Below are positions 2,181-40,795 of a stretch of 64,000 nucleotides of DNA, one piece after another. Position 1 is the first letter of the stretch, and every line of letters begins with the position of its first letter. This DNA comes from Gammaproteobacteria bacterium (GTDB taxonomy: Bacteria; Pseudomonadota; Gammaproteobacteria; Steroidobacterales; GCA-2729495). The translations under genes were made by a program, and so were the position numbers. The notes under the pieces are model-generated. The model saw only the letters and a program-made list of their open reading frames with translations. It had not been told where the DNA came from and made no database searches. The DNA lies in NCBI GenBank assembly GCA_029245525.1, contig JAQWPD010000101.1, forward strand, positions 47,197-111,196, read 5' to 3'.

Positions 2181-2963
2181 TTAGTCGCGCAACCCGATAC
2201 CCCTGTGAATAAGGTAGTAACAGGTGAGCGCAAACAACACCAGAAATATCAGAATTACTGCAAAAGCCGAGCCAATGCTTATATCAGACACCCCAATGAT
2301 GCCGTAGCGGAAGCCGTTTACCATATACAAAATAGGGTTAAATTTGGAAAGTCCGGCCCAAAAATCAGGCAACAACGATGTTGTGTAAAACACCCCGCCC
2401 AAATAGGTCAAGGGGGCTAAAATAAAGGCCGGAATAATTGCGATGTCATCAAATTTTTTCGCGAAAATCGCATTAATCATTCCCGCCATAGAAAAGACCA
2501 TGGCTGTAAGAATAAGCACTGCGAACGCAATAAGCGGGTGCTTTACGTCAACGTCAGTGAAAAACAAAGTGACCACCGTAACAATAGCGCCTACAGCAAG
2601 ACCACGGACAACGCCACCCATCACATGCCCTAGAATAATCACCCAGCCACTCAGCGGGGATACCAGCATTTCCTGAAGATAACCTTGAAACTTTGCGCCA
2701 AAAAATGAAGACACTACGTTGCCGTATGAACTTGTAATGACAGACATCATAATCAAACCTGGCGCCATAAACTGCATGTAGTCAAAGCCGCCCATATCAC
2801 CAATTCGTCGTCCGATAAGGTTACCGAAAATCACGAAATACAGCGACATCGTGATTGCGGGGGGCACTATGGTCTGTACCCAGATTCGCGCAACACGTGA
2901 AACCTCTTTGCGAACAATGGTGTAGAAGCCAACCAACTGAATTTTTAATGGGACACCTGACAT
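2181..2963 (-). CDS. yadH: ABC-2 type transporter permease (YadH-like)
   Basis: Strong resemblance along the whole length to E. coli YadH, for example RIWVQTIVPPAITMSLYFVIFGNLIGRRIGDM and FNPILYMVNGFRYG. It overlaps the stop of the upstream ATPase gene by 1 nt. Confidence 0.9.
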   Translation of the reverse strand: MSGVPLKIQLVGFYTIVRKEVSRVARIWVQTIVPPAITMSLYFVIFGNLIGRRIGDMGGFDYMQFMAPGLIMMSVITSSYGNVVSSFFGAKFQGYLQEMLVSPLSGWVIILGHVMGGVVRGLAVGAIVTVVTLFFTDVDVKHPLIAFAVLILTAMVFSMAGMINAIFAKKFDDIAIIPAFILAPLTYLGGVFYTTSLLPDFWAGLSKFNPILYMVNGFRYGIIGVSDISIGSAFAVILIFLVLFALTCYYLIHRGIGLRD

Positions 2964-3901
2964 TAATGGTCACTCCCGTCAGTGGACACATCTTTGCGCT
3001 GCGTCAGCCGTATGAACAGCTCTTCAAGCCGGTTGGTTTTATTGCGCAGGCTTGAAACAATAATGTTGCGCTCGTTTAACAAACTGAAGAGGTCATTAAT
3101 GCTTTGCCCTTTGCCAACTTGTACTTCAAGCTCCGATTCGCTTACCAAACGAACTTTAAAACCGGCCAAAACCGGTGCAGCATCGACCGTATTTTCTAAA
3201 TTAAGAACGAAAACTTCCTGATGCAGTTTGCGCAGGATTGCTGACATCCTGTCATTTTCAACAATTTTCCCATCGTCGATAATCGCAATGTTGCGACACA
3301 GAGTTTCTGCTTCTTCAAGGTAATGGGTCGTCAGAATAATTGTCGTGCCCTGCTCATTAATTTCTTTCAGAAAGCCCCACATTGAACGACGAATTTCAAT
3401 ATCGACACCCGCTGTAGGTTCATCAAGAATCAATAGTTTTGGCGAGTGAACGAGCGCGCGGGCAATCATTAACCGCCGCTTCATTCCCCCGGAAAGACCA
3501 CGCGCCTGATCATCGCGACGATCCCATAGCTGAAGCTGACGTAACATCGCCTCCGTGTGGGCCGCCGCTTGAGAACGCGGTATGCCGTAGTAGCCCGCCT
3601 GATTCATCACGATGTCATAGCAGCTCTCGTAGAGATTCATATTGATCTCCTGCGGTACAACACCAATGCATGCTTTCGCCGCATAAATATCATTATCGAG
3701 GCTGTGACCAAATACACGAATATCGCCGTGTGTTTTATTGACCAACGAAGTGATGATACCGATGGTGGTAGTTTTACCAGCACCATTGGGCCCCAGCAGC
3801 GCAAAGAAGTCGCCCTCTTCAACTTCCAGGTCAATACCGCGCAAAGCCTGAATTCCGTTGGGGTAAGTTTTAGTAAGGCTATTTATCGCTAATGCTTTCA
3901 T
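2963..3901 (-). CDS. yadG: ABC transporter ATP-binding protein (YadG-like)
   Basis: Walker A GPNGAGKTT, signature LSGGMKRRL and Walker B LLILDEPT. I chose the start at MKALAINSL (ATG 3901) rather than the longer ORF start at 3937. Confidence 0.9.
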   Translation of the reverse strand: MKALAINSLTKTYPNGIQALRGIDLEVEEGDFFALLGPNGAGKTTTIGIITSLVNKTHGDIRVFGHSLDNDIYAAKACIGVVPQEINMNLYESCYDIVMNQAGYYGIPRSQAAAHTEAMLRQLQLWDRRDDQARGLSGGMKRRLMIARALVHSPKLLILDEPTAGVDIEIRRSMWGFLKEINEQGTTIILTTHYLEEAETLCRNIAIIDDGKIVENDRMSAILRKLHQEVFVLNLENTVDAAPVLAGFKVRLVSESELEVQVGKGQSINDLFSLLNERNIIVSSLRNKTNRLEELFIRLTQRKDVSTDGSDH

Positions 3902-4007
3902 GCCGCACATTGTGAAGACCTTGGCGTCACAAACCAAGAGGGGCTGATTAATAAGGCAGTAGCACGGTCACCATAAGGGCTATCAGGCGAGCCATCTAAA
4001 ACAGCGC

Positions 4008-4619
4008 TCAGGCGAGAGTTCGCGCAACCAAGAGGGGCAGTGCAGCCAGCCTGGCCACGGCAGTGGTCTCACTATCTGGGGAGTTCGCGACACGCACTAA
4101 ATCCGGCCAGAAGCGCGGATCGGTAGTAAAGCGCGCTAGCAATTTGCGTGGGGCCTGTTCGACAAGGTGACGAATTTCAATAAAGCTCATTGCCGCAAGT
4201 GAAGCGATTGATTCCGGCCGCAAGCCTAAGAACAATCTTGCCGCTGCGGTGTCACGACGGACCACTGACCAAATGTACGTTAGGAGCCCTGCTGCGAATA
4301 CCTTAACGTCGCTCTGCCAAGCCGGAGATGCCTCTTCGGATATGGCTGCATTTTGCTGGCGCATCCTGTCGTGGCAGCTCACCGGGGAATCTGCGCGCGA
4401 AGATAACAGAGGCGCCAATTCGACCAGCAGGCATGGAACCTCATCAAGGCTGCCATAAACCGGAAAATCGGGATGCCGCAGTGCTTGCAACGATTGCTGC
4501 GGCATGCCGAACAGGTCTTTGGTGTCTGGGGCATCCGGGTCCAGCATCAGCCTAATGAATTCTCGATTGAACTCCGCAATTTCAGGGTACACATCTAAAT
4601 CAGTGAGTTTAGCTCGCAT
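4008..4619 (-). CDS. Hypothetical protein with two FlhD-like repeats (weak similarity, from memory)
   Basis: A GGAG lies 8 nt before the ATG. The segments DTKDLFGMPQQSLQALRHPDF...LLVEL and DTAAARLFLGLRPESIASLAAMSFIEIRHLVEQAPRKLLARF both resemble the FlhD core [42 protein letters not shown]. The gene is divergent from an FlhC-family gene. Confidence 0.45.
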   Translation of the reverse strand: MRAKLTDLDVYPEIAEFNREFIRLMLDPDAPDTKDLFGMPQQSLQALRHPDFPVYGSLDEVPCLLVELAPLLSSRADSPVSCHDRMRQQNAAISEEASPAWQSDVKVFAAGLLTYIWSVVRRDTAAARLFLGLRPESIASLAAMSFIEIRHLVEQAPRKLLARFTTDPRFWPDLVRVANSPDSETTAVARLAALPLLVARTLA

Positions 4620-4680
4620 TTTAGGCGCTCCAGTGCCAAAACAGGTGATTACTATATATTGACTTTTTAAACTCTATTAG

Positions 4681-4726
4681 AGGTATATTACCGTATATGG
4701 TCGAAAAACCACATATAAGGTATATT
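4681..4726. promoter_or_regulatory. Direct repeat AGGTATATT (4681-4689 and 4718-4726) flanking CCGTATATGG / CACATATAAGG in the divergent intergenic region
   Basis: Read directly in the AT-rich 174-bp spacer between the FlhD-like and FlhC-like genes. This is a candidate operator. No consensus for it is known to me. Confidence 0.3.
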
Positions 4727-4793
4727 GAGGTGTATCGGGCAGATTTAAAAAGAGGGCGCAGCAATAATAACTACAACATTACGAGGGATAACC

Positions 4794-5360
4794 ATGCGTA
4801 TCACCGACCAGCGCTACAACGGCGAAATTGAACGTTTTAACCTCGCGGTCCGTATGATTGGACACGAGGCTCGTACCGGCACTATTCGAAAATGCACAGG
4901 CTTTACCGAGGATAGAATCCGCAAAATTTACGGCAGTTATTTCAAATCTAATACAGATAATGTCGTCAAGCGTCGGCGTGGTAAGTCTCCCACACAAATC
5001 AATATGTTTATTAACACCAATAATCACCAGTTCGAATCGACGGTACTGGCGTGTTTGTTTGTCATGTGCGGGGTCATAGCATTCGATACGAAAGGGATAC
5101 CGGCAGCCGCTTGCGGGATTGATAAAGTTGGGGTTGGACAACGTCTTTGCGAGGCTTTCGAACGTTATCGCCAATTGCACCCAAACCCTCATTTCTCATT
5201 TGAAAAAGCATGGGGACTATTTAATGCGTTGACCCAAGCAAATGAACTGATCTTGTCTAATTGTGAAAGCTGCAACGGCAAGTACATTCACGACAGATAT
5301 GCGCTCAACTATCACTTCTGCGCCAGCTGCGAATTGCTCGATGCGGCTGTCCGGATGTAA
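4794..5360 (+). CDS. FlhC-family transcriptional activator-like protein (4-Cys zinc site)
   Basis: GAGGGA lies 5 nt before the ATG. The protein is about the size of FlhC. The C-terminal FSFEKAWGLFNALTQANELILSNCESCNGKYIHDRYALNYHFCASC matches the FlhC pattern [31 protein letters not shown]...FACSLC. Confidence 0.6.
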   Translation: MRITDQRYNGEIERFNLAVRMIGHEARTGTIRKCTGFTEDRIRKIYGSYFKSNTDNVVKRRRGKSPTQINMFINTNNHQFESTVLACLFVMCGVIAFDTKGIPAAACGIDKVGVGQRLCEAFERYRQLHPNPHFSFEKAWGLFNALTQANELILSNCESCNGKYIHDRYALNYHFCASCELLDAAVRM

Positions 5361-5392
5361 AGTGACCACTCCTTTACGCAGTGGCAGGATCA

Positions 5393-6340
5393 ATGGATCT
5401 TATTCAAACCTATTTCTCGGGCGGGACGATCGATCGGAGAAGCGCTGTGCGCAAAGATCCGCAATTACTGCAGAAATTATTAGAGCAGCCACGCACCTGC
5501 CTGCTGCCGATATCGGAGGGGCAGATGCTTGTTCGCGATGGAAAGCCCGCGTTGCTTGGGCTTTCAGAGATCGCTACCGCGACGCATCATCGCGTTCCTA
5601 CTCTCCAGCAACTGGTGTACCTGGGCCGGATTTCCGACCAGGACCTTTTCGCATTTAACACCCGCTCAAGCACAGACTTCAGTGCTCCGCAAAACTGTAT
5701 GTTCCTTAGCGGCCGTGAGCTGATGGGCAGCGTAGACAGCGAGTCAGCATCGCTATTGGCCTATGCCCGCGGCATCATCAACTGGCATGATAACCATCAG
5801 TTCTGCGGCCATTGTGGCGCTCCCAATAGTAGCACTGAGGGCGGCTTCGTTATGAAGTGCTCGTCATGCGGTCAACGCAGCTTTCCGCGACTCGATCCGG
5901 CAATCATCGTATTGGTCGCTCACGATGACCGCTGTCTGCTCGGACGCCAAGCATCATGGCCGGAGCAAAGGTTTTCAACCATAGCGGGATTTGCTGAGCC
6001 GGGTGAAAACCTCGAAGATGCAGTGAGGCGTGAGGTGCTTGAAGAGACAAACGTGAGTGTGGGCCGCTGCAACTATCTTGCCTCGCAACCCTGGCCCTTC
6101 CCCTCGGCACTGATGATTGGATTCCATGCGCAGGGTTTGTCCACCCACATCAAACTCAACGATGCTGAGCTCATCGAGGCCGGCTGGTTTAGCCGGGAAG
6201 ACCTTCGGAGCAGCAAAATTGTTCTGCCGCCGCAGCAATCGATCGCCTTTGAGCTAATAGCGGCCTGGCATGACCTGCGGAGCGATATCCGCCTCGGCGA
6301 GATCGCCGCATCGGTAGAATTCAACGCTCCTGGTGCATAA
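5393..6340 (+). CDS. nudC: NAD+ diphosphatase / NADH pyrophosphatase NudC
   Basis: Zinc ribbon CGHCG...CSSCG, then PRLDPAIIVL, the Nudix box GFAEPGENLEDAVRREVLEETN and SQPWPFP. A GTG at 5381 is an alternative start. Confidence 0.9.
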   Translation: MDLIQTYFSGGTIDRRSAVRKDPQLLQKLLEQPRTCLLPISEGQMLVRDGKPALLGLSEIATATHHRVPTLQQLVYLGRISDQDLFAFNTRSSTDFSAPQNCMFLSGRELMGSVDSESASLLAYARGIINWHDNHQFCGHCGAPNSSTEGGFVMKCSSCGQRSFPRLDPAIIVLVAHDDRCLLGRQASWPEQRFSTIAGFAEPGENLEDAVRREVLEETNVSVGRCNYLASQPWPFPSALMIGFHAQGLSTHIKLNDAELIEAGWFSREDLRSSKIVLPPQQSIAFELIAAWHDLRSDIRLGEIAASVEFNAPGA

Positions 6341-6912: not shown

Positions 6913-8130
6913 ATGACTACAACAAATAATTCATCACCTATCCTTCTGGCTTATTCAGGCGGGCTGGATACTTCGTTCTGTGTACCTTGGCTGAAAGAGA
7001 CCTATGGTCGCCCAGTGATTACCGCCTGCGTGAACACTGGGGGCTTAAACGCAACGGCTGCAAAGAGTCTTGAAGACCGGGCAATGGCCCTCGGAGCAAC
7101 GGAGCATGTGCTTATTGAAGCCCGTGACATTTTCTTTAATCGGGTTTTAAAACACCTTATTGCGGGCAATGTCCGCCGTGGTCAGTTGTACCCGATGTGC
7201 GTGGGCGCCGAACGTGGTATTCAGGCAACGTTGCTGGCCGAGCTTGCTAAAAAGCGAGGGACAGCAACCGTTGCACATGGCTGCACAGCTGCAGGTAATG
7301 ACCAGGTTCGCTTTGAAGTTGCACTAAAAACCATCAACCCTGGCTTGGAAATTATTGCGCCGGTGCGTGACCAATCCTTCATCCGCGAAGAGCAGGTTGC
7401 TTACCTGCAAGCCGGCAACTACCCAATGCCGCCATCTGGCGCAAAGTACTCCATTAACCGGGGCTTATGGGGCGTTAGTATTGGCGGCAAAGAGACGCTG
7501 ACATCGGCAGACACTATTCCTGAAGAGGCGTGGGTGCTCTCCTCCAGCGCGCTTGACCAGCCAAAGGCTCCACAGGAGCTTGTTATCGGCTTTGAGAAAG
7601 GAGTGCCTGCAACAATCAATGGGGAAGAGCTTGCTCCGGTCAACCTGATAGAGAAGCTGGAAGCTATTGCGGGTGCTTATGGCATTGGCCGTGGCATTCA
7701 CCTCGGTGACACTGTGCTCGGCACCAAAGGCCGGGTAGCTTTCGAGGCTCCTGCGGCAGAGGTATTGCTCACAGCGCATCGTGAACTTGAAAAGCTGGTA
7801 CTCAGTTCTTTGCAGATGAGCATTAAAGAAGGTGTCTCGCTCAACTATGGCAACTTCGTGCATGAAGGTAAGCAGCTTGATCCGGTATGCCGCGACATCG
7901 AGGCGTTGCTGGAGTCTTCTCAACAACGGGTCACCGGCAGCGTAAAATTAAAACTGCGCCCCGGCAACTTATTCGTTGAGGGTGTTGAGTCAGAGTACTC
8001 TCTAATGGCGGCAACCAAAGGAGTGTATGGCGAGGCTGCTGGCGAATGGACTCCGCGCGATGCGCTCGGCTACTCAACCGTATTATCACTTTCCGGAATG
8101 CTACAAACCCGGGCAGGACAACAAAAATGA
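6913..8130 (+). CDS. argG: Argininosuccinate synthase
   Basis: N-terminal AYSGGLDTS ATP pyrophosphatase motif, HGCTAAGNDQVRFE, length 405 aa. Confidence 0.95.
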   Translation: MTTTNNSSPILLAYSGGLDTSFCVPWLKETYGRPVITACVNTGGLNATAAKSLEDRAMALGATEHVLIEARDIFFNRVLKHLIAGNVRRGQLYPMCVGAERGIQATLLAELAKKRGTATVAHGCTAAGNDQVRFEVALKTINPGLEIIAPVRDQSFIREEQVAYLQAGNYPMPPSGAKYSINRGLWGVSIGGKETLTSADTIPEEAWVLSSSALDQPKAPQELVIGFEKGVPATINGEELAPVNLIEKLEAIAGAYGIGRGIHLGDTVLGTKGRVAFEAPAAEVLLTAHRELEKLVLSSLQMSIKEGVSLNYGNFVHEGKQLDPVCRDIEALLESSQQRVTGSVKLKLRPGNLFVEGVESEYSLMAATKGVYGEAAGEWTPRDALGYSTVLSLSGMLQTRAGQQK

Positions 8131-9179
8131 AAACTGTGCTCGCAGACAAAATCGGATCGGTTGCGCTTCACAAAAGCATCAGCCAGGAGCTTCACCTAAG
8201 CCCGGAAATACCGTGCGAGGAAGGCGTGCTTATTGCCGTTGAAGTGCTGAACAATAAAGCCACTTACAACAAACTTGAACTGGTTAGCGGTCGGATGGCA
8301 CAGCTGAAGCGCGGCGATATCATCGTAGGTGCTCTCGGACATCGAAATGCCTTATTTGGTTACTCCGGTCACCTGCCAGAAACTGTAAAGCCCGGGGACA
8401 TTTTGCAGCTACTGAATATTGGTGGCGTGATTGGCGTCTGCGATTCTGTTAATGCCAATTTCGGCCAACCTTTTGAGGGTAAGGTACTGGGCGCAGTGCT
8501 CGAATTTCCGCATCTAGGCGAACGCATCGGCGTTCCGGCGCGTGTTGGTGGTGAAACGCTTGATGGATTACCGCCTCTCGATACGCAAGGCATCCCAATA
8601 GTTGCGCTTGCCGGAACCTGCATGGATTCAGGGAAAACAGCCGCCGCATGCGCAATTGTCAGCCGCCTGCGTCACCAAGGTTTTACAGTCGACGCCTTCA
8701 AGGCGACCGGTGTCGCTTTACGTCGCGATATTCTGGCTATGGAGGATGCCGGTGCGCGCAATACCGTCATTTTCAGTGATTTTGGCGTGGTTGCCAGCTC
8801 GGATGAAACCGGGCCCGCAGTGACTCGCACAATGCTAAATAAGCTGTGTGCCAAAAAACCTGACGTTGTGGTGTTTGAGCTTGGCGATGGCCTGCTAGGC
8901 ACTTATGGTGTCCAAGCGATACTGGCGGATGAAGACATTAAGAAGGCGCTATCCTGCATTATACTTTGCGCCAATGACCCTGTAGCGGCATGGGGGGGCG
9001 TCAAGCTCATGCAGCAAGACTACAACCTCGACACCAGTGCTGTTACAGGCCCTGCCACGGATAATCAGGTCGGAAAAAAATTGATCAATACCCGTTTAAA
9101 TGTGCCGGCATGGAATGCGCTGACTGATAGCACTGAGCTCGGTGATGAGGTTATCAACATTCTTAAACTGAAAAAATAG
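8127..9179 (+). CDS. Uncharacterised P-loop protein (BioD/CobQ/DUF1611-like GTxxxSGKT motif) embedded in the arg operon
   Basis: Its ATG at 8127 overlaps the argG TGA (ATGA). The N-terminal ~165 aa look like a beta-rich domain. Then comes IPIVALAGTCMDSGKTAAACAIVSRLRHQGFTVDAFKATG. I do not recognise any arginine enzyme family. Confidence 0.6.
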   Translation: MKTVLADKIGSVALHKSISQELHLSPEIPCEEGVLIAVEVLNNKATYNKLELVSGRMAQLKRGDIIVGALGHRNALFGYSGHLPETVKPGDILQLLNIGGVIGVCDSVNANFGQPFEGKVLGAVLEFPHLGERIGVPARVGGETLDGLPPLDTQGIPIVALAGTCMDSGKTAAACAIVSRLRHQGFTVDAFKATGVALRRDILAMEDAGARNTVIFSDFGVVASSDETGPAVTRTMLNKLCAKKPDVVVFELGDGLLGTYGVQAILADEDIKKALSCIILCANDPVAAWGGVKLMQQDYNLDTSAVTGPATDNQVGKKLINTRLNVPAWNALTDSTELGDEVINILKLKK

Positions 9180-9226
9180 CATAAAATTTTTTGCAGCACT
9201 GAAGTCGGTTGCATTGGACTAAAGTA

Positions 9227-10273
9227 ATGAGTGATACAGTTAAAACAGTGGTTATTGGCAGCTCCGGATATGTCGGCGGAGAGCTGCTGCGCCTGATAGC
9301 GGGGCACCCACAACTGGAGCTCGCTGCTGCAGTATCGGAGTCGAACTCCGGAATGCCCATCAATAGTGTGTTTCCGCATTTGCACAATGCACTGGGTGAG
9401 CAATGTTTTATTGGCCCGGATGAACTGCAGCAACATCTGCATGGCAAAATAGCGATATTTTCGGCCGCGCCTCATGGAGCAAGCGCGGGCATGATTGCCG
9501 ATGTTCTGGCACAAGCCAAGGACGCCGATGTGCGTGTAGTGGATGTGTCTGCTGACTTCCGCTTTGCCGATAGCGCCAGTTACTCTGCTGTTTATGGTGA
9601 ACATGGTGCTCCGGAACTGCTTGATCAGTTTGTCTGTGGACTGCCGGAACACATGCCCAATACAGAACACACGAGCGTGGGCCATCCTGGCTGTTTTGCT
9701 ACCGCTATGCTGCTTGCGGCTGTGCCGCTGCTGCAGTTGGACCTGATTGAGCCCGAACTGAACGCCTTTGGTATTACCGGCAGCACTGGCTCAGGTCAGG
9801 CGCCATCTGCGGGCACCCATCATCCGGTACGCAACTCGAATCTGTATGCTTATAAGCCGCTGGAACATCGTCATGCGCCTGAGGTTGTTGCTATCTGCAA
9901 AGCTCTAACCGGCAAAAACAGCACGCTCAACTTTATTCCCCACTCCGGCCCGTTTGCGCGGGGCATTCATATGACGGTTCAGGCTAAATTGAAACAGCCA
10001 CGGACGACCGAAGAACTGGTCGCAGAATTTACTGACTTTTATAACCACAACGAGTTCGTCACCGTGGTCAGTGGTCAGCCAAAGCTAAAAGATGTGACGT
10101 GCAGTAACTATTCACAAATAGGTATCGCCACTAATGGCGATACCGTGGTGGTATTCACGGTCATAGACAATTTAATTAAAGGTGCCGCGGGGGGCGCAGT
10201 TCAATGGATGAACCGCAAACTCGGCTTTGATGAAACACTGGGCCTGACGACACCCGGAAGTGGCTGGGGTTAA
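9227..10273 (+). CDS. argC: N-acyl-gamma-glutamyl-phosphate reductase
   Basis: VVIGSSGYVGGELLRL Rossmann motif and catalytic-Cys region GHPGCFATA. I chose the start at ATG 9227 (MSDTVK); the TTG at 9209 is the longer alternative. Confidence 0.9.
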   Translation: MSDTVKTVVIGSSGYVGGELLRLIAGHPQLELAAAVSESNSGMPINSVFPHLHNALGEQCFIGPDELQQHLHGKIAIFSAAPHGASAGMIADVLAQAKDADVRVVDVSADFRFADSASYSAVYGEHGAPELLDQFVCGLPEHMPNTEHTSVGHPGCFATAMLLAAVPLLQLDLIEPELNAFGITGSTGSGQAPSAGTHHPVRNSNLYAYKPLEHRHAPEVVAICKALTGKNSTLNFIPHSGPFARGIHMTVQAKLKQPRTTEELVAEFTDFYNHNEFVTVVSGQPKLKDVTCSNYSQIGIATNGDTVVVFTVIDNLIKGAAGGAVQWMNRKLGFDETLGLTTPGSGWG

Positions 10274-26188: not shown

Positions 26189-26869
26189 TTAAATTATTGC
26201 TGAAACCGCGTTCATGTATTTCGAATGCCTCGCGACCCTGATAGGCAAACCATTAAGCACTTGAGTAGCCAGCTGACGCTGAGCACGATCAAACTTACAC
26301 TCAACAACAACAGTCTCAGGCAGATTCGCCTTCAGGCGAACATTTGGTCGAGGATTTTTCCGCTGATCCCACACCATCTGATCGAAGTCGAGGGTAACCC
26401 GAATACGGCCACATGCGCTCAAATAATAAAAACGCCGATAGTGATTAATCATTACAGCCCAAGGATTTTGCTCCAGCCAGAGACGACCCTCGTGATCAAG
26501 CTGAAGGGCTATCATGTCGCGGATTTCTGTCCATGTTGTGCGGTCATCAACCGGCAGGTCTTTAACTTTGTACAGCAGTTTCCAGCCGTACTGATTACGC
26601 TTTTGCTTGATCTCAAGCTTGCCGGGAGACGGCAGTAAACTGTCCCCATACCAGCGATACCGTACTTTTGTGCGGTCACTTACGCCGGCCAAGTTCTCGG
26701 CATACGCTGAGTACTCCAAGGTATCAAAGTAAACATTATGCACCGTGCGCATCGGATACGCCTCTGAAAATGCCAGAGGGTGCAACCGCAGCCACTGGTA
26801 CACCACATCTGTATCACGCCGATTCGTAACAAACTTAATTTCTTGTCGGGCGCCGTCAGGAACTAACAT
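26189..26869 (-). CDS. VTC-domain (CYTH-like polyphosphate polymerase domain) protein
   Basis: RQEIKFV...VHNVYFDTLEYSAY...RTKVRYRWYGD...KLEIKQKRNQYGWK matches the bacterial VTC-domain pattern. The ATG shares 1 nt with the upstream TAA. Confidence 0.75.
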   Translation of the reverse strand: MLVPDGARQEIKFVTNRRDTDVVYQWLRLHPLAFSEAYPMRTVHNVYFDTLEYSAYAENLAGVSDRTKVRYRWYGDSLLPSPGKLEIKQKRNQYGWKLLYKVKDLPVDDRTTWTEIRDMIALQLDHEGRLWLEQNPWAVMINHYRRFYYLSACGRIRVTLDFDQMVWDQRKNPRPNVRLKANLPETVVVECKFDRAQRQLATQVLNGLPIRVARHSKYMNAVSAII

Positions 26870-29583
26870 TACTGGCGATCCTCCGGTTTAGGCCGCCGTA
26901 ACCCTGGCCTCATAACAGTGTTATAAAGTTCATCCACATCAATATCCTCCGGAGCAAACTCCTCGCCATCGAGAATTACCCGACTGCCGGTCTGCACCAC
27001 TGCGACCGCACGATTACCCTGCAGAGTCATATTCCTGGCCACTACTTCGGCGATGCCAAACTCTGGCTTCTTTATGTAAGCCATCAAGGCAGAAATTCTG
27101 GAATTAAAAATAGAAGAGTTTGCTATGTCGAGACGAGAGCCATCCTTGGCAGCAGCGCCCGTCCCGCACGCTTCAATAAATAAGTTTTCAGCCTGCACCT
27201 GACTGGCCTCGCCGACAGAGAGCGCTTTATCGTCGACATTTAAAAACCGTGTGCCATTCAGGCTAATATTACTTGTGCTGACGTCAACAGCATCTCCGCC
27301 TCCAGCGGTGCCGATACCTTCAAACAGACCGCCGATAATTTTGCCGGTGCAGAAATCACAGTCAAACCCATCGGACAAGGTATCAATAATCTGTAAATTA
27401 CTAATCGCAAAATCTGAGCTAATAATATTTAGTCCGTCCTCACCCTTATGATGCAGGATTGAGATGTCGGACATATCAACAGAATTGCGGTAAAAATTTG
27501 TGCCGCCCATCAGCTTCCAAACACCCAACTCCACGCCGCGAGTATCTTCCACAACCACATTGCTCCAGCGCGAACGCTCCGGCGCAGCAAACGCAACAAA
27601 CCCCAACCAGCTGTCCGCACCTGCCTCGGCGAGCAATTGCACAGGCTCCGCGACAGTGCCTTCAAAAAAGACATTGCCGCGAACAATCAAGGCAGCATCC
27701 TCGGCAAAACGCAAAGTAGTACCGGGACCCGCTTGAAGGGAGTAGCCTTCGGGGAAGGCCATTGTACTAGTGACTGACCACTCTCCTGCCGCAATACTCA
27801 CCTTTTTTGCAGACTCATCAAGCGATAAAAAGCTTGATATGGCCAACAGCTCATCGATACCCATAACAGGGATGGGGTTGCGATTAACCAAGGGCGCCTG
27901 CTTGACCGCTTTAATATTAAAGCCACGATCCTGTTGCCTACCCAAAACCAGAATGGTCTCCTCTGCCAAATCTGCAGGCAACTCTATTCTAGTCACCGGT
28001 GAAATATCATTAACTGCTCTGCTTTGAAGCTCCAGGGGCAAACCCGGCAAAACAATCTGTTGCCCATCCACCTCTATAGCATCTATCGTCACGGGGTAAG
28101 GAATCGCCGATGCCAAATCAAGATACGTCCGATCGCCGTCAATAACCTGGTATGCACGCAGCGCATTGGGGTAATAACTGGAAACACCTTGAGGCTGGCC
28201 AACCAAAAAATTAGCCGCTTGCAATTGGGTGTCATTAAGCGATCCGAGAAACGCCGCACGCTGCTCAATTTCATTCAAGGGATACTTAGGCAGAAAGAAA
28301 TATTCACTGTGCAGAATGTCAAGAAGCCGGCGCTCCTCTTCGCGCATGCTATCAATCAGCTCGCCTGTCTCAACTCTTGCGACCAAATCAGATAAAACCT
28401 CTTTGTAGCGTGCGAAAATTTTTGGATCCTGCAACATTTGCTGCACCATCGCTTCTTTCGCAGAGATATATTCATCGCCTGATTCACGCTGCTTAAGGCT
28501 TGCATCATAAGCAATGGGCTCCATCTTGAGCGTTATGGGGTTCATGTAAAATCGCTGGTTATGCCAGCGGATCGCATGAAACGCTCCCATTAACTCACTG
28601 ACCGCTAAGTAAGCCCCCATCGTATTAGCATCAAAAATTTCCGATGCTGCAACACGACCCTCACTGAAGGCACGAAGCATTCCTGAGGCAATCTGCGACT
28701 GACCATAGAGCGTGGGTGAATCGCTCAGCTTACCGCCCTGAAATACATCCGTAGCAGCATTGCGGAAATCATCGTAAACACCACCGAAGCCATTACCGCG
28801 AGGACCATCGAACGAACTAAAAACAAGGTCCTCATCGTAGCGGACAATAACGCCCTCACGGCGCGACTGCGACTCAAGCAACTCTTTCGAGAAGTGCTCT
28901 TCCAGTGCCATGATGCCAAGATCATTGCCGTTAAGCATCATGTTAACGTACAGATAACGCGGTGTCAGAACACCATAGTCCCGTAAAACATGGAAGTACA
29001 AATTCTCCGAATGGTAACCGCGCACAGCTGGGTTCTGTACGGAAAAATTCCGCATCCCGAGATAGGTTTCGCCTTTACGGACCTGCACCCGAAAGGACCA
29101 TTTTTCACCTCGCACGTGATCGGTAAAGTCTCCTTTCAAACGGATTTTTACAGGAATTGTGTTATCGCGACCACGAATTTTAGCCTTAACGAATGAGTCT
29201 TCCGTCTGGACAATACGCCCTCGGATCAAGGCTTCATCGCGCTGCTCATAGATAGCGCGCATATCTCGAAACTTCACATCAAGAACAAGGTCTGGAATAT
29301 CCCCATCAGAGCTCACGCTTGCTATGACATTGGGCCCTGCTTGCAAACTGGCGCTCAGCAGTCCTGGGCCATTATCAAATGCGGCATGCCCCCTTTCCCA
29401 AGGAAAGAGCAATATAGGGCCGTACTCGGCCTTTAGGTAATTGCTTGAAAAGAGCTTGGGATTGCCCAAACCTTCAATCAGGTAGGCGCAAACCAGCAGC
29501 ACCGGCACGCCCAAAATAAGCAGCACAGATGGTTTGGGGAAACGCCGCTTACCTCTGGCCGGCTTGCCGCCTTTGAGCTGCAT
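26869..29583 (-). CDS. Membrane-anchored CotH kinase-family protein with C-terminal parallel beta-helix repeats
   Basis: N-terminal TM segment SVLLILGVPVLLVCAYLI. CotH-like core YFHVLRDYGVLTPRYLYVNMMLNGNDLGIMALEEHFSKELL. The C-terminal ~330 aa contain Gly/Asn/Asp-rich repeats typical of right-handed beta-helices. Confidence 0.7.
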   Translation of the reverse strand: MQLKGGKPARGKRRFPKPSVLLILGVPVLLVCAYLIEGLGNPKLFSSNYLKAEYGPILLFPWERGHAAFDNGPGLLSASLQAGPNVIASVSSDGDIPDLVLDVKFRDMRAIYEQRDEALIRGRIVQTEDSFVKAKIRGRDNTIPVKIRLKGDFTDHVRGEKWSFRVQVRKGETYLGMRNFSVQNPAVRGYHSENLYFHVLRDYGVLTPRYLYVNMMLNGNDLGIMALEEHFSKELLESQSRREGVIVRYDEDLVFSSFDGPRGNGFGGVYDDFRNAATDVFQGGKLSDSPTLYGQSQIASGMLRAFSEGRVAASEIFDANTMGAYLAVSELMGAFHAIRWHNQRFYMNPITLKMEPIAYDASLKQRESGDEYISAKEAMVQQMLQDPKIFARYKEVLSDLVARVETGELIDSMREEERRLLDILHSEYFFLPKYPLNEIEQRAAFLGSLNDTQLQAANFLVGQPQGVSSYYPNALRAYQVIDGDRTYLDLASAIPYPVTIDAIEVDGQQIVLPGLPLELQSRAVNDISPVTRIELPADLAEETILVLGRQQDRGFNIKAVKQAPLVNRNPIPVMGIDELLAISSFLSLDESAKKVSIAAGEWSVTSTMAFPEGYSLQAGPGTTLRFAEDAALIVRGNVFFEGTVAEPVQLLAEAGADSWLGFVAFAAPERSRWSNVVVEDTRGVELGVWKLMGGTNFYRNSVDMSDISILHHKGEDGLNIISSDFAISNLQIIDTLSDGFDCDFCTGKIIGGLFEGIGTAGGGDAVDVSTSNISLNGTRFLNVDDKALSVGEASQVQAENLFIEACGTGAAAKDGSRLDIANSSIFNSRISALMAYIKKPEFGIAEVVARNMTLQGNRAVAVVQTGSRVILDGEEFAPEDIDVDELYNTVMRPGLRRPKPEDRQ

Positions 29584-30269
29584 TAGACGCTTGGAAGATG
29601 ATTCTGGTCGAGGAAGGTAATGCTGATGTCAGGGAATGCTTCGCGCAACGAGTCGACCAAGCCACTCAATGACTGGTCATCACGTAAATCGACAAGGTAG
29701 GTTGCTGATAACATCGCCTCACGAATATCATAGCGGCGTAAATCGCCTTTTGCAGCATGACTGACAATCACTTTATTTATTTCTTCAAGCTTACCTTTCT
29801 GCGTTGCTTGATCGCCTTCCCAATCCAGAGACAAGAATAGCTGACGGCCGGTATCACCTTGGCGAACCCATTTGAGACCCGCCATGGCACCGAGAATAAA
29901 CAGGGTAGCGATTACCGTCGGTACAGTCTGAGATGCACCAAGGCCAAGGCCAACAGCAATAGAAATAAAGAGGTAGGCCAATTCTTCAGGCTCTTTAATC
30001 GGTGTACGGAAGCGCACGATAGAGAGTGCGCCAACCAAACCCAACGACAAGGCGAGAGACGATTTAACGACCATAATAATCAGCACAACCGTTAGTGAAA
30101 CAAACGGAAATACCTGCGCAAACTCATCACGATTAGAAAGTGTTGAACCAAAACGTTTAAAGTGCCATCGGACGATCATCGAAAGAATAACGGCCACAAT
30201 AAGATTGAGCAGTAACTCAGGGATGGATAGTGGGGCATCGGAGCCAAAGGCTGAAATTTCGTCAAGCAT
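29583..30269 (-). CDS. DUF4956-domain membrane protein
   Basis: LLLNLIVAVILSMIVRWHFKRF...SLGLVGALSIVRFRTPIKEPEELAYLFISIAVGLGLGA is characteristic of DUF4956. First gene of the triad. Confidence 0.75.
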   Translation of the reverse strand: MLDEISAFGSDAPLSIPELLLNLIVAVILSMIVRWHFKRFGSTLSNRDEFAQVFPFVSLTVVLIIMVVKSSLALSLGLVGALSIVRFRTPIKEPEELAYLFISIAVGLGLGASQTVPTVIATLFILGAMAGLKWVRQGDTGRQLFLSLDWEGDQATQKGKLEEINKVIVSHAAKGDLRRYDIREAMLSATYLVDLRDDQSLSGLVDSLREAFPDISITFLDQNHLPSV

Positions 30270-30555: not shown

Positions 30556-31203
30556 ATGAAAAAACTATTATTTTTAATGTGCTTGCTCAACGCGACCGCC
30601 TGTGTCGCCGATAAACAGAGTAACGCAGCTGATGAAATCGCAACTCCCGCAAACATCTTGTTCGACTACCCCACTGTAGTTCAACCAGGTCTGGTCAACT
30701 TGCTGGTTGAGATTCCCGCTGGAACACAGCAAAAGTGGGAGGCCATGAAGTCCGGTGATGGACTTAAGTGGGACAGAAAGAATGGTCAACTTCGGGTCAT
30801 CAATTACCTACCCTACCCTGGCAATTACGGCATGATTCCTAGAACGCTGCTACCTCGTGAAGCCGGTGGTGATGGCGACCCGCTGGATGTCATCATGCTC
30901 GGTAGCTCAGTGCCACGTGCTACGGTGATAGCAGTTAAGCCCATTGCAGTGCTCCGACTCCTAGATAACGGCGAGCAAGACGATAAAATTCTTGCGGTTC
31001 CACTGGAGGGCGCCATGAGTGACCTAAGTTCGCTGGCTGAGCTCAACCAGCGATACGCTGGCGTTACACAAATTATCGAGCTCTGGTTTACCCACTACAA
31101 AGGTTCAGGCCGCATGGAATCGCAAGGTTATGCCGATAAAGATGCCGCCTGGGAAATGATCAATATCGCCAGCCGCGCCTTTGACGCCAAACACAGCGAT
31201 TAA
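30556..31203 (+). CDS. ppa: Family I inorganic pyrophosphatase with N-terminal signal peptide / possible lipobox
   Basis: PPase core LVEIPAGTQQKWE...YPGNYGMIPRT...GDGDPLDVIMLG, preceded by MKKLLFLMCLLNATAC. Confidence 0.8.
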   Translation: MKKLLFLMCLLNATACVADKQSNAADEIATPANILFDYPTVVQPGLVNLLVEIPAGTQQKWEAMKSGDGLKWDRKNGQLRVINYLPYPGNYGMIPRTLLPREAGGDGDPLDVIMLGSSVPRATVIAVKPIAVLRLLDNGEQDDKILAVPLEGAMSDLSSLAELNQRYAGVTQIIELWFTHYKGSGRMESQGYADKDAAWEMINIASRAFDAKHSD

Positions 31204-39577: not shown

Positions 39578-40795
39578 TCAGGAATGCACCGGCACGGCAG
39601 GGATAACATACTCACGCAGTGTTTGAGAAAAATCTTCAAGGACCTTCACGCCGCTTGATTCCGCCTCAAGACACCACTCTTTCAAATGGGCTACCAAGCC
39701 ATCGTTGCTTACATTGGCCTGATCCCATAGGGCCATCAAACGCTCCCGATATTCATGCACGGTCTTCAATGCCTGATTCTCAGCAAGCAATTCTCTTAAG
39801 CGCTGCTCACTAAAACTATCAAGAAGCACAGGATTGCTCACCAACAACTTACGCGCCTTCGGCATCAATCCATAGTTTGACGATGACTCGTACTTAAGCA
39901 CAGGCAATGTCACACTCCGGGTATATGATCGCAATACGTTCATGCGGTTCATCAGTACCGCCTGAAGCGTCTCCAGATCAACCTGCCTTGGCGCTTCGGC
40001 AAGATGTGGTTTCGGCGAGGTCCGGAGCACCTTCACTAGCCCTAAATACCTCATCAGACAGATGTACATCCAGCCAATATCAAATTCCCACCATTGCACC
40101 GAAAACTTAGCGGACGTTGGAAATGCATGATGGTTGTTATGCAGCTCCTCACCGGCAATGAAAATTGCTAATGGCGTGAGGTTAGTTGCCGCATCATCAC
40201 ACTCGAAATTACGGTAGCCTTTGGCATGACCCAGGCCGTTGACAACACCGGCAGCCAGAACCGGAATAGTTAGCATCTGCAGAGCGTATACGATAATCCC
40301 CGGCACACCCAGTAACAGTATATAGGCCGCGAAAAGAAGCTTTAGGCCCAGATTCTCGTAGCGCATCAGGAAATGTTCAAGCGCATCGTCAGGACAGCCC
40401 CGACTGTACTTTGCAACGGTTTCGGGGTTCGAAGCTTCGAGCTTGTAAAGCTCGGCACCCTCTTGTAAAACCTTCTTTAATCCAAACACAACCGGACTAT
40501 GGGGGTCACCCTCACGCTCACACATAGCATGATGCTTTCGGTGCACAGCAACCCACTCACGGGTGATCATTGCAGTAGTCAGCCAAAGCCAGATGCGAAA
40601 AAACACCCGCAAGGCAGGGTTCAGTACTATCGACTGATGCGCCTGATCTCGATGCAGATATAACGTTACGGCCGCCAGAGTCAGCTGCATAACAAAGACC
40701 GTAAAAATAACACCGCCCCAAAAGCTCAGGTTCAAAAAGCCATGCATGTGCTCAAAGATAAAATTCAACATTCGTTCATCAACCTTGGGTTCCAT
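39578..40795 (-). CDS. Membrane fatty-acid (delta-9 type) desaturase with C-terminal extension
   Basis: Histidine boxes HRDQAH, HRKHHAMCE and HNNHHAF. N-terminal TM hairpins. Confidence 0.85.
   Translation of the reverse strand: MEPKVDERMLNFIFEHMHGFLNLSFWGGVIFTVFVMQLTLAAVTLYLHRDQAHQSIVLNPALRVFFRIWLWLTTAMITREWVAVHRKHHAMCEREGDPHSPVVFGLKKVLQEGAELYKLEASNPETVAKYSRGCPDDALEHFLMRYENLGLKLLFAAYILLLGVPGIIVYALQMLTIPVLAAGVVNGLGHAKGYRNFECDDAATNLTPLAIFIAGEELHNNHHAFPTSAKFSVQWWEFDIGWMYICLMRYLGLVKVLRTSPKPHLAEAPRQVDLETLQAVLMNRMNVLRSYTRSVTLPVLKYESSSNYGLMPKARKLLVSNPVLLDSFSEQRLRELLAENQALKTVHEYRERLMALWDQANVSNDGLVAHLKEWCLEAESSGVKVLEDFSQTLREYVIPAVPVHS

Follow-up and report, generated by a model that had tools for sequence, protein, structure and literature searches.

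What could be the function of an FlhDC-like pair of genes in a chromosomal region that holds neither flagellar nor conjugation genes? The question is raised by a stretch of 64,000 nucleotides of DNA from a marine, uncultured gammaproteobacterium (GTDB order Steroidobacterales; assembly GCA_029245525.1, contig JAQWPD010000101.1, positions 47,197–111,196), the whole of which is hereinafter called the window, where a gene encoding a protein of 203 amino acids (aa) on the minus strand (4008–4619) and a gene encoding a protein of 188 aa on the plus strand (4794–5360) diverge from an AT-rich spacer of 174 bp. To our knowledge, the two-subunit activators of the FlhDC type are known from two settings only, namely the flagellar hierarchies and the control of transfer by conjugative elements, as exemplified by AcaCD, SetCD and BisDC. 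The analysis described below identifies the 188-aa protein (the C subunit) as a relative of FlhC and supports the identification of the 203-aa protein (the D subunit) as a protein with tandem FlhD-like repeats, as in AcaD. The reading that we favor, and hold to be fairly probable by analogy with these systems, is that the two proteins constitute a heteromeric activator, controlling both its own synthesis and the two operons by which they are flanked, and thus a chromosomal member of the FlhDC/AcaCD superfamily. If so, the family would represent a third setting for activators of this type, comprising about 969 clusters, chromosomal, vertically kept and devoid of ties with either motility or transfer.

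The C subunit belongs to the FlhC family

Judged from its sequence, the 188-aa protein is a member of the FlhC family endowed with a zinc ribbon. With the Pfam model of FlhC (PF05280), the cut-off of which is 27 bits, it scores 29.8 bits, residues 11–181 being aligned with positions 9–162 of the 173 of the model, and already as a single sequence it matches both FlhC chains whose structure has been solved and deposited in the PDB. A family profile built from 34 homologues (A4) matches the FlhC of C. necator (8j56_C) with an expectation value (E) of 4e-9 and that of E. coli (2avu_E) with an E of 9.5e-6, the profile being colinear with the solved proteins in its N-terminal as well as in its C-terminal stretch. 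Furthermore, the segment FSFEKAWGLF is aligned with LTRAWTLV of FlhC, both CxxC pairs are in register with those of the solved structure and the four cysteines concerned (C157, C160, C176 and C179) recur without exception in the 34 family members. The FlhC architecture, with its CxxC…CxxC site and the helix preceding it, that had been proposed for this protein in an initial annotation made from the letters of the window alone, is therefore borne out by Pfam, by the profile matches to solved FlhC and by the invariance of the cysteines.

The same protein scores 27.9 bits with the NCBIfam equivalog of flagellar FlhC (NF009365), for which the cut-off is 216, indicating that it is a member of the FlhC family and not an orthologue of flagellar FlhC. 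The C subunit is more than 50% identical across hundreds of clusters, and some annotations of metagenome-assembled genomes (MAGs) already call it an FlhC-family regulator, the D subunit being invariably designated as hypothetical. Searches of PHROGs and PADLOC yielded for the C subunit a single weak PHROG of unknown function and nothing further, and no ParB domain was found in either protein of the pair by the Pfam scan.

The D subunit consists of two FlhD-like repeats

Searches made with the 203-aa protein as a single sequence were empty and its relation to FlhD is revealed by family profiles only. The FlhD relationship postulated in the initial annotation is supported at the level of profiles: the protein taken singly has no Pfam match, whereas the profile of its family is significantly related to FlhD. 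A profile search among 1.84 billion representatives delineated this family, which comprises 969 clusters at 50% identity (E ≤ 0.001; 262 clusters at E ≤ 1e-10); nearly all its members are 190–240 aa long and are matched end to end, and their identity with the 203-aa protein ranges from 89% to less than 25%.

Two alignments of the family were used as profiles, a narrow one (A1) and a broad one with 86 members (A2). The top PDB match of A1 is solved FlhD (8j56_A), aligned with the C half (104–182) at E 0.033, whereas with A2 the N half matches the solved FlhD of C. necator (8j56_A) at E 6.7e-7 and that of E. coli at E 6.4e-5. When the two halves are split, the N half is aligned with FlhD 4–71 (E 2.9e-5 by hhalign and 3.4e-5 by HMMER) and the C half, in the same register and with weaker scores, with E. 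coli FlhD 17–75 (E 6.7e-4 and 0.037, respectively). The two halves also match each other (hhalign with A2, E 4e-5), again in the same register, which comprises an LG(L/I/M) turn, two helices and a strand equivalent to the “CHFRF” of FlhD; with the narrow A1 this comparison is not significant (E 0.075), so that the broader alignment is required to detect it. Finally, 26 of the 86 family members match Pfam FlhD individually, and with the N halves of P0298 and P0299 the score exceeds the cut-off of this model (30.2 and 28.6 bits, respectively, against 27). These profile comparisons support the covalent duplication of FlhD suggested in the initial annotation; the two FlhD-like segments, at first placed at residues ~30–70 and ~125–165, are found close by, at ~8–72 and ~112–170.

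A structural prediction also bears on the relation to FlhD. The AlphaFold (AF2) model of the 203-aa protein, obtained on the family alignment with a predicted local distance difference test (pLDDT) score of 80.8 and a predicted template-modelling (pTM) score of 0.82, has as its top Foldseek match in the PDB the FlhD chain 2avu_B (probability 1.00, TMt 0.73, root-mean-square deviation 3.0, 105 columns, E 0.17), further FlhD matches being 1g8e, 4es4, 8j56 and 5hxg; altogether, FlhD chains head the list with TMt values between 0.55 and 0.81. Within the full model the pLDDT of the N half is 75–91, as opposed to 62 when this half is folded alone. That the N half is predicted with confidence only alongside the C half is uninformative as to the fold, yet it is consistent with an intertwined pseudo-dimer resembling the FlhD dimer.

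The design of the D subunit is that of AcaD

In the initial annotation the doubled D subunit had been regarded as special to this pair, a premise that did not survive comparison with AcaD, a protein of 22.8 kDa, i.e., twice the size of FlhD, that copurifies with AcaC as the heteromeric activator of the IncA/C (IncC) conjugative plasmids, both proteins being required (PMC4207636). In plasmid pAR060302 (NC_012692.1), AcaD consists of 202 aa (163424–164032, corresponding to L014:28425–29033) and is annotated as “hypothetical protein”, whereas AcaC (183 aa) is annotated as an FlhC-family regulator. The D-family profile is colinear with AcaD over both halves (hhalign, 141 columns, E 2.8e-6, probability 88%), and when the halves are compared singly, either half of the D family matches both halves of AcaD, with E between 1.5e-4 and 4e-3. 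Since the 203-aa family is colinear with AcaD, the doubled D design is not peculiar to this locus, being common to an activator whose activity has been demonstrated experimentally; this point is new with respect to the initial annotation. AcaD itself would seem to comprise two FlhD-like repeats in tandem. Our literature searches, which were noisy, found no paper describing the 203-aa family or the tandem-FlhD reading of AcaD.

The resemblance has its limits. The AcaD of 202 aa matches the 203-aa protein over its whole length and AcaC matches the C subunit weakly, but the level of sequence identity is very low (~16–21%) and, unlike the divergent pair found here on a core chromosome, acaD and acaC are co-oriented, overlapping genes carried beside tra by a conjugative plasmid. 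SetCD of the SXT/R391 integrative and conjugative elements (ICEs) and BisDC of ICEclc are likewise FlhDC-like two-subunit activators operating outside flagellar biology, but both are carried by mobile elements. In addition, BisD is a ParB-domain protein in which an FlhD domain went undetected (PMC7423338), while no ParB domain was detected in the two proteins of the pair. BisC, which is FlhC-like according to Phyre2, belongs to the Pfam family DUF2857 (PMC7423338). As a side observation, the first 69 positions of the DUF2857 model match the FlhD-like N half of family member P0299 (residues 22–85) with an E of 3.3e-5, so that BisC-type proteins may begin with an FlhD-like segment.

Comparison with the flagellar FlhD4C2 of Enterobacterales and Burkholderiales (PDB 2AVU and 8J56) yields a similar mixture of likeness and difference. 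The genes of the two subunits are adjacent in both cases, the C subunit has the zinc site and is colinear with FlhC, and the FlhD core is matched by each half of the D subunit. On the other hand, E. coli FlhD is a single-domain protein of 116 aa, whereas the D subunit has 203 aa and two FlhD-like repeats, and E. coli flhDC is a co-oriented operon located next to motAB, unlike the pair described here, which is divergent and lies between yadGH and nudC. At the sequence level it can be argued that the D subunits of ~200 aa, among them the AcaD of IncC plasmids conferring multidrug resistance, consist of FlhD repeated in tandem, a design from which a stoichiometry other than FlhD4C2 would be predicted.

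The divergent pair is the conserved unit

Both genes are real and conserved, and both open reading frames (ORFs) were confirmed at the coordinates and in the divergent orientation initially reported. The relatives come without exception from uncultured MAGs, assigned to Chromatiales or designated as Gammaproteobacteria or Pseudomonadota bacterium, and the only sources of the family of the pair so far are marine and environmental Gammaproteobacteria that have not been cultured; a contig search with a single protein gave two close MAGs. The divergent C/D arrangement is present in every distinct locus examined, including distant ones having other neighbors. In five of these loci (L001, L004, L006, L009 and L011), whose D proteins are from 49% to ~30% identical, the order is the same as in the window, with D-yadG-yadH reading one way and C-nudC, separated by 9–32 nt, reading the other way. 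Two distant loci, L012 and L013, retain the divergent pair in other surroundings, C being followed by a CitMHS transporter and a DUF885 gene and D being adjoined by unrelated genes. The conserved unit is thus the divergent pair. The wider region is also syntenic (gspAB, a polyprenyl synthase gene, mevalonate genes and arg genes), which means that conservation of the yadGH and nudC neighbors is, by itself, no proof of a functional link.

In the window, the start of nudC is either 5381 (GTG) or 5393 (ATG), 20–32 nt past the stop of the FlhC-like gene, and terminator-like sites were not found between 3850 and 5500. The placement of the pair between yadGH and nudC and the shortness of this gap, both indicated by the initial annotation, are supported by the ORFs and by the family matches of the neighbors, and the co-transcription of the FlhC-like gene with nudC that had been put forward on this basis fits the sequence, so that nudC is probably co-transcribed with this gene. 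A point not contained in that annotation is the place of the D gene at the head of the yadGH unit.

The surroundings are those of a core chromosome in the window as well as in eight related loci. The gene content of the 64 kb includes arg genes, polA, engB, dsbA, coaBC, fpg, ftsYEX, rpoH and gltBD; no flagellar, motor or chemotaxis gene was found in the window or within 6–8 kb of the pair in the related loci, no conjugation/transfer, integrase or relaxase gene was found in the window and the Rfam and tRNA scans of the latter gave nothing. The GC content of the window is even (46–55%). An origin from a mobile island was considered and, on the grounds of composition and synteny, judged unlikely. 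The non-flagellar and non-conjugative context from which the initial annotation had started is therefore confirmed over the 64 kb, and the pair is kept, in a core-chromosome context, in all the distinct loci examined.

The neighborhood of nudC varies in one respect: a gene of the TANGO2 family (PF05742) follows nudC after 3–35 nt in four loci (L004:5558–6349, L006:5573–6346, L009:7539–8285 and L011:7549–8316), while in the window and in L001 there is no such gene and nudC is directly followed by argR.

Conserved blocks and dyads in the intergenic spacer

The spacers of six loci were aligned, the D proteins of which share only ~30% identity, and two blocks were found to be invariant in all six, the first being TACTATA(T/A)AT (4650–4659 in the window) and the second TG(G/T)TCNAAAA..CCA (4698–4713). 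The latter block is enclosed by an operator-like dyad, O2, that is itself contained within an inverted repeat (4689–4722) whose 11-nt arms are 91% complementary. O2 is the sole site of the window with no more than one mismatch, the chance expectation being 0.145 per 64 kb. The dyad ATATGG-N10-CCATAT occupies the same place in the spacer of other loci: L001 and L007 each have two copies at a distance of 40 bp, those of L001 being exact, L011 has one exact copy and L006 a degenerate one. The degenerate dyad O1 of the window, which is overlapped by the first block, lies 40 bp from O2 and corresponds in position to the second copy present in L001 and L007. Overall, the density of the dyads in the spacers is ~115 times that found in the rest of the loci. 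The conserved dyads are a candidate DNA target. The putative operator ATATGG-N10-CCATAT seems unlike the box of FlhD4C2. Two other patterns were scanned for in the window: the matches to CCATATATGG were no more than expected by chance, whereas TGGTCNAAAANNNCCA gave 11 matches as against 5.2 expected, most of them inside genes.

The position of the dyads with respect to the possible promoters may be relevant for the regulation of the two genes. On the minus strand the first block reads TATAGT, ~30 nt upstream of the D start, and is a plausible −10 element, while TATATT (4721–4726), 17 nt past the center of O2, would be a plausible counterpart on the side of the C gene. The SetCD boxes overlap or abut the promoter −35 element, and both SetCD and FlhD2C2 act from sites of this type (PMC4344509). 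By analogy, the location of the dyads next to the putative −10 elements suggests that they would suit a mode of action in which the bound site overlaps or abuts the −35 element.

Proposed mechanism and alternative explanations

If the two proteins are homologous to the subunits of an activator and are encoded back to back, how would they operate? In the activator model that we favor, the C and D subunits would form a single activator, as suggested by their homology with FlhD4C2 and AcaCD, and their association with each other may be inferred from their conserved adjacency. One fused D chain would stand in for the FlhD homodimer and, since a D chain replaces an FlhD dimer, the complex would be D2C2 instead of FlhD4C2. 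This complex would bind the conserved 22-bp dyads located between its own genes and, once bound, it would control both divergent promoters, which entails the control of its own subunits as well as of the YadGH exporter encoded behind D and of the NudC hydrolase encoded behind C. With the subunits split between two self-controlled promoters a feedback circuit would arise, for which a precedent is offered by BisDC, a participant in a positive feedback loop (PMC7423338). While the homology is solid and the family large, the stoichiometry of the complex, its DNA target, the sign of the regulation and the composition of the regulon in these uncultured organisms are presented here as properties that the activator would have. 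A bolder version of the model, which we regard as doubtful, holds that the pair is a host-owned AND-gate or positive-feedback switch, possibly bistable, coupling the ABC exporter to NudC, a hydrolase of NAD caps and NADH, in marine Gammaproteobacteria of a widespread, uncultured clade, and that the fused D subunit giving rise to D2C2 is the common non-flagellar design (AcaD and perhaps BisC/DUF2857), of which the short FlhD is a special case.

Several observations weigh against the activator model or against one of its parts. As regards the D subunit, the 203-aa protein alone has no match in Pfam (including FlhD PF05247), NCBIfam or the PDB, the match of its C half to FlhD is marginal by HMMER (E 0.03–0.04), Foldseek gives weak E-values, none better than 0.17, and leaves unstated which half is aligned, while the N half folded alone (pLDDT 62, pTM 0.43) has no FlhD match in Foldseek, this model being too poor to be given weight. 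As regards the DNA target, the pattern used for the scan recovers the dyad in L004, L009, L012 and L013 either in degenerate form or not at all, and the dyads might be the sites of a different regulator. Finally, the conservation of yadGH and nudC may reflect general synteny, distant pairs having other neighbors.

Among the alternative explanations, the one that survives best, though it is rather unlikely, is that the pair is the true flagellar master regulator of the host, encoded away from the flagellar genes and having as its regulon the class II flagellar operons located elsewhere. Indeed, by hhalign the C subunit is nearer to E. coli FlhC (probability 94%, E 1.4e-7, 152 columns) than to AcaC, whose match is weak (probability 58%, E 9.9e-5). 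Yet the lack of flagellar, motor and chemotaxis genes in the 64 kb of the window and within 6–8 kb of the pair in the related loci, the divergent order and the doubled D subunit, unlike canonical flhDC next to motAB, and the finding of the conserved dyads only in the spacer of the pair itself all speak against this explanation.

Quite improbable is the possibility that the pair stems from a mobile element and persists in the chromosome as a domesticated or relict activator of the AcaCD/SetCD/BisDC type, with no present host function or with targets on the element only. This view could appeal to the double-FlhD layout common to the D subunit and IncC AcaD and to the match of one family member to DUF2857, the family of BisC (PMC7423338), but it has to contend with the lack of integrase, tra, relaxase and tRNA genes nearby, with the uniform GC content and with the retention of the same chromosomal position in loci whose D proteins are only ~30% identical. 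Furthermore, the conservation of the C subunit across hundreds of clusters points to purifying selection in the host, and a tblastn search of the plasmids of PLSDB with the FlhC-like protein gave no match at E ≤ 0.01.

Lastly, the explanation that the 203-aa protein is unrelated to FlhD, its similarity being the noise expected among helical proteins and the FlhC-like protein acting alone or with another partner, is very improbable since, in spite of the missing Pfam match, the modest E of the narrow profile and the weak Foldseek E-values, the broad profile reaches solved FlhD at E 6.7e-7, the scores of single members exceed the Pfam cut-off for FlhD, the Foldseek list is headed by FlhD chains and the D gene adjoins the FlhC-like gene in every locus examined.

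Features of the locus and of the remainder of the window

The coordinates of the features discussed above are collected in Table 1.

Table 1. Features assigned to the divergent FlhC-like/FlhD-like locus and its immediate neighbors (positions in the window)
Feature	Position	Strand	Basis or remarks
FlhC-family subunit gene	4794–5360	+	188 aa; Pfam PF05280 above cut-off and profile matches to solved FlhC
Four-cysteine zinc site (C157, C160, C176, C179)	5262–5330	+	Aligned to CxxC…CxxC of solved FlhC
Tandem FlhD-like (AcaD-like) subunit gene	4008–4619	−	203 aa; family profiles, colinearity with AcaD, AF2 model and Foldseek
N-terminal FlhD-like repeat, residues ~8–72	4404–4598	−	Profile against solved FlhD
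C-terminal FlhD-like repeat, residues ~112–170	4110–4286	−	Profile against FlhD; N half against C half
Putative divergent promoter/operator region	4620–4793		Two blocks invariant in six loci
Invariant block TACTATATAT (4650–4659) overlapping degenerate dyad O1 (4655–4676, 3 mismatches)	4650–4676		Six-locus alignment
Operator-like dyad O2, ATATGG-N10-CCACAT, 22 bp	4695–4716		Encloses the second invariant block
nudC, NAD(+) diphosphatase / NADH pyrophosphatase	5381–6340	+	NCBIfam NF001299, 241 bits (equivalog)
yadG-like ABC ATPase gene	2963–3937	−	Pfam ABC_tran; downstream of the 203-aa gene
yadH-like ABC-2 permease gene	2181–2963	−	Pfam ABC2_membrane; downstream of the 203-aa gene

A few additional observations concern other parts of the window and of the related loci. 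The mevalonate pathway is uncommon in Gammaproteobacteria; mevalonate genes (encoding a diphosphomevalonate decarboxylase-like protein and GHMP kinases) are located by the polyprenyl synthase gene and gspAB in L001:15019–16615, L004:15634–16576 and L006:15711–16594. Between argG (6913–8130) and argC (9209–10273) the window contains an ORF of ~351–377 aa (8046–9179, plus strand) that has no Pfam match; an unannotated gene of 351 aa holds the same slot in L001, L002 and L009, the order of the cluster around this ORF, designated X, being argR-argG-X-argC-argD-argF-argB-argH. The ORF of 405 aa at 39578–40795 (minus strand) contains both a fatty-acid desaturase domain (residues 25–238) and a C-terminal DDE transposase fragment of the ISL3 family (residues 311–396) and is probably the remnant of an insertion sequence either fused to a desaturase gene or truncating it. 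Finally, the minus-strand cluster at 26189–30269, which encodes a VTC-domain protein, a CotH kinase-like protein of 904 aa and a DUF4956 protein and is adjoined by an inorganic pyrophosphatase gene (30556–31203), may represent a polyphosphate-related module.

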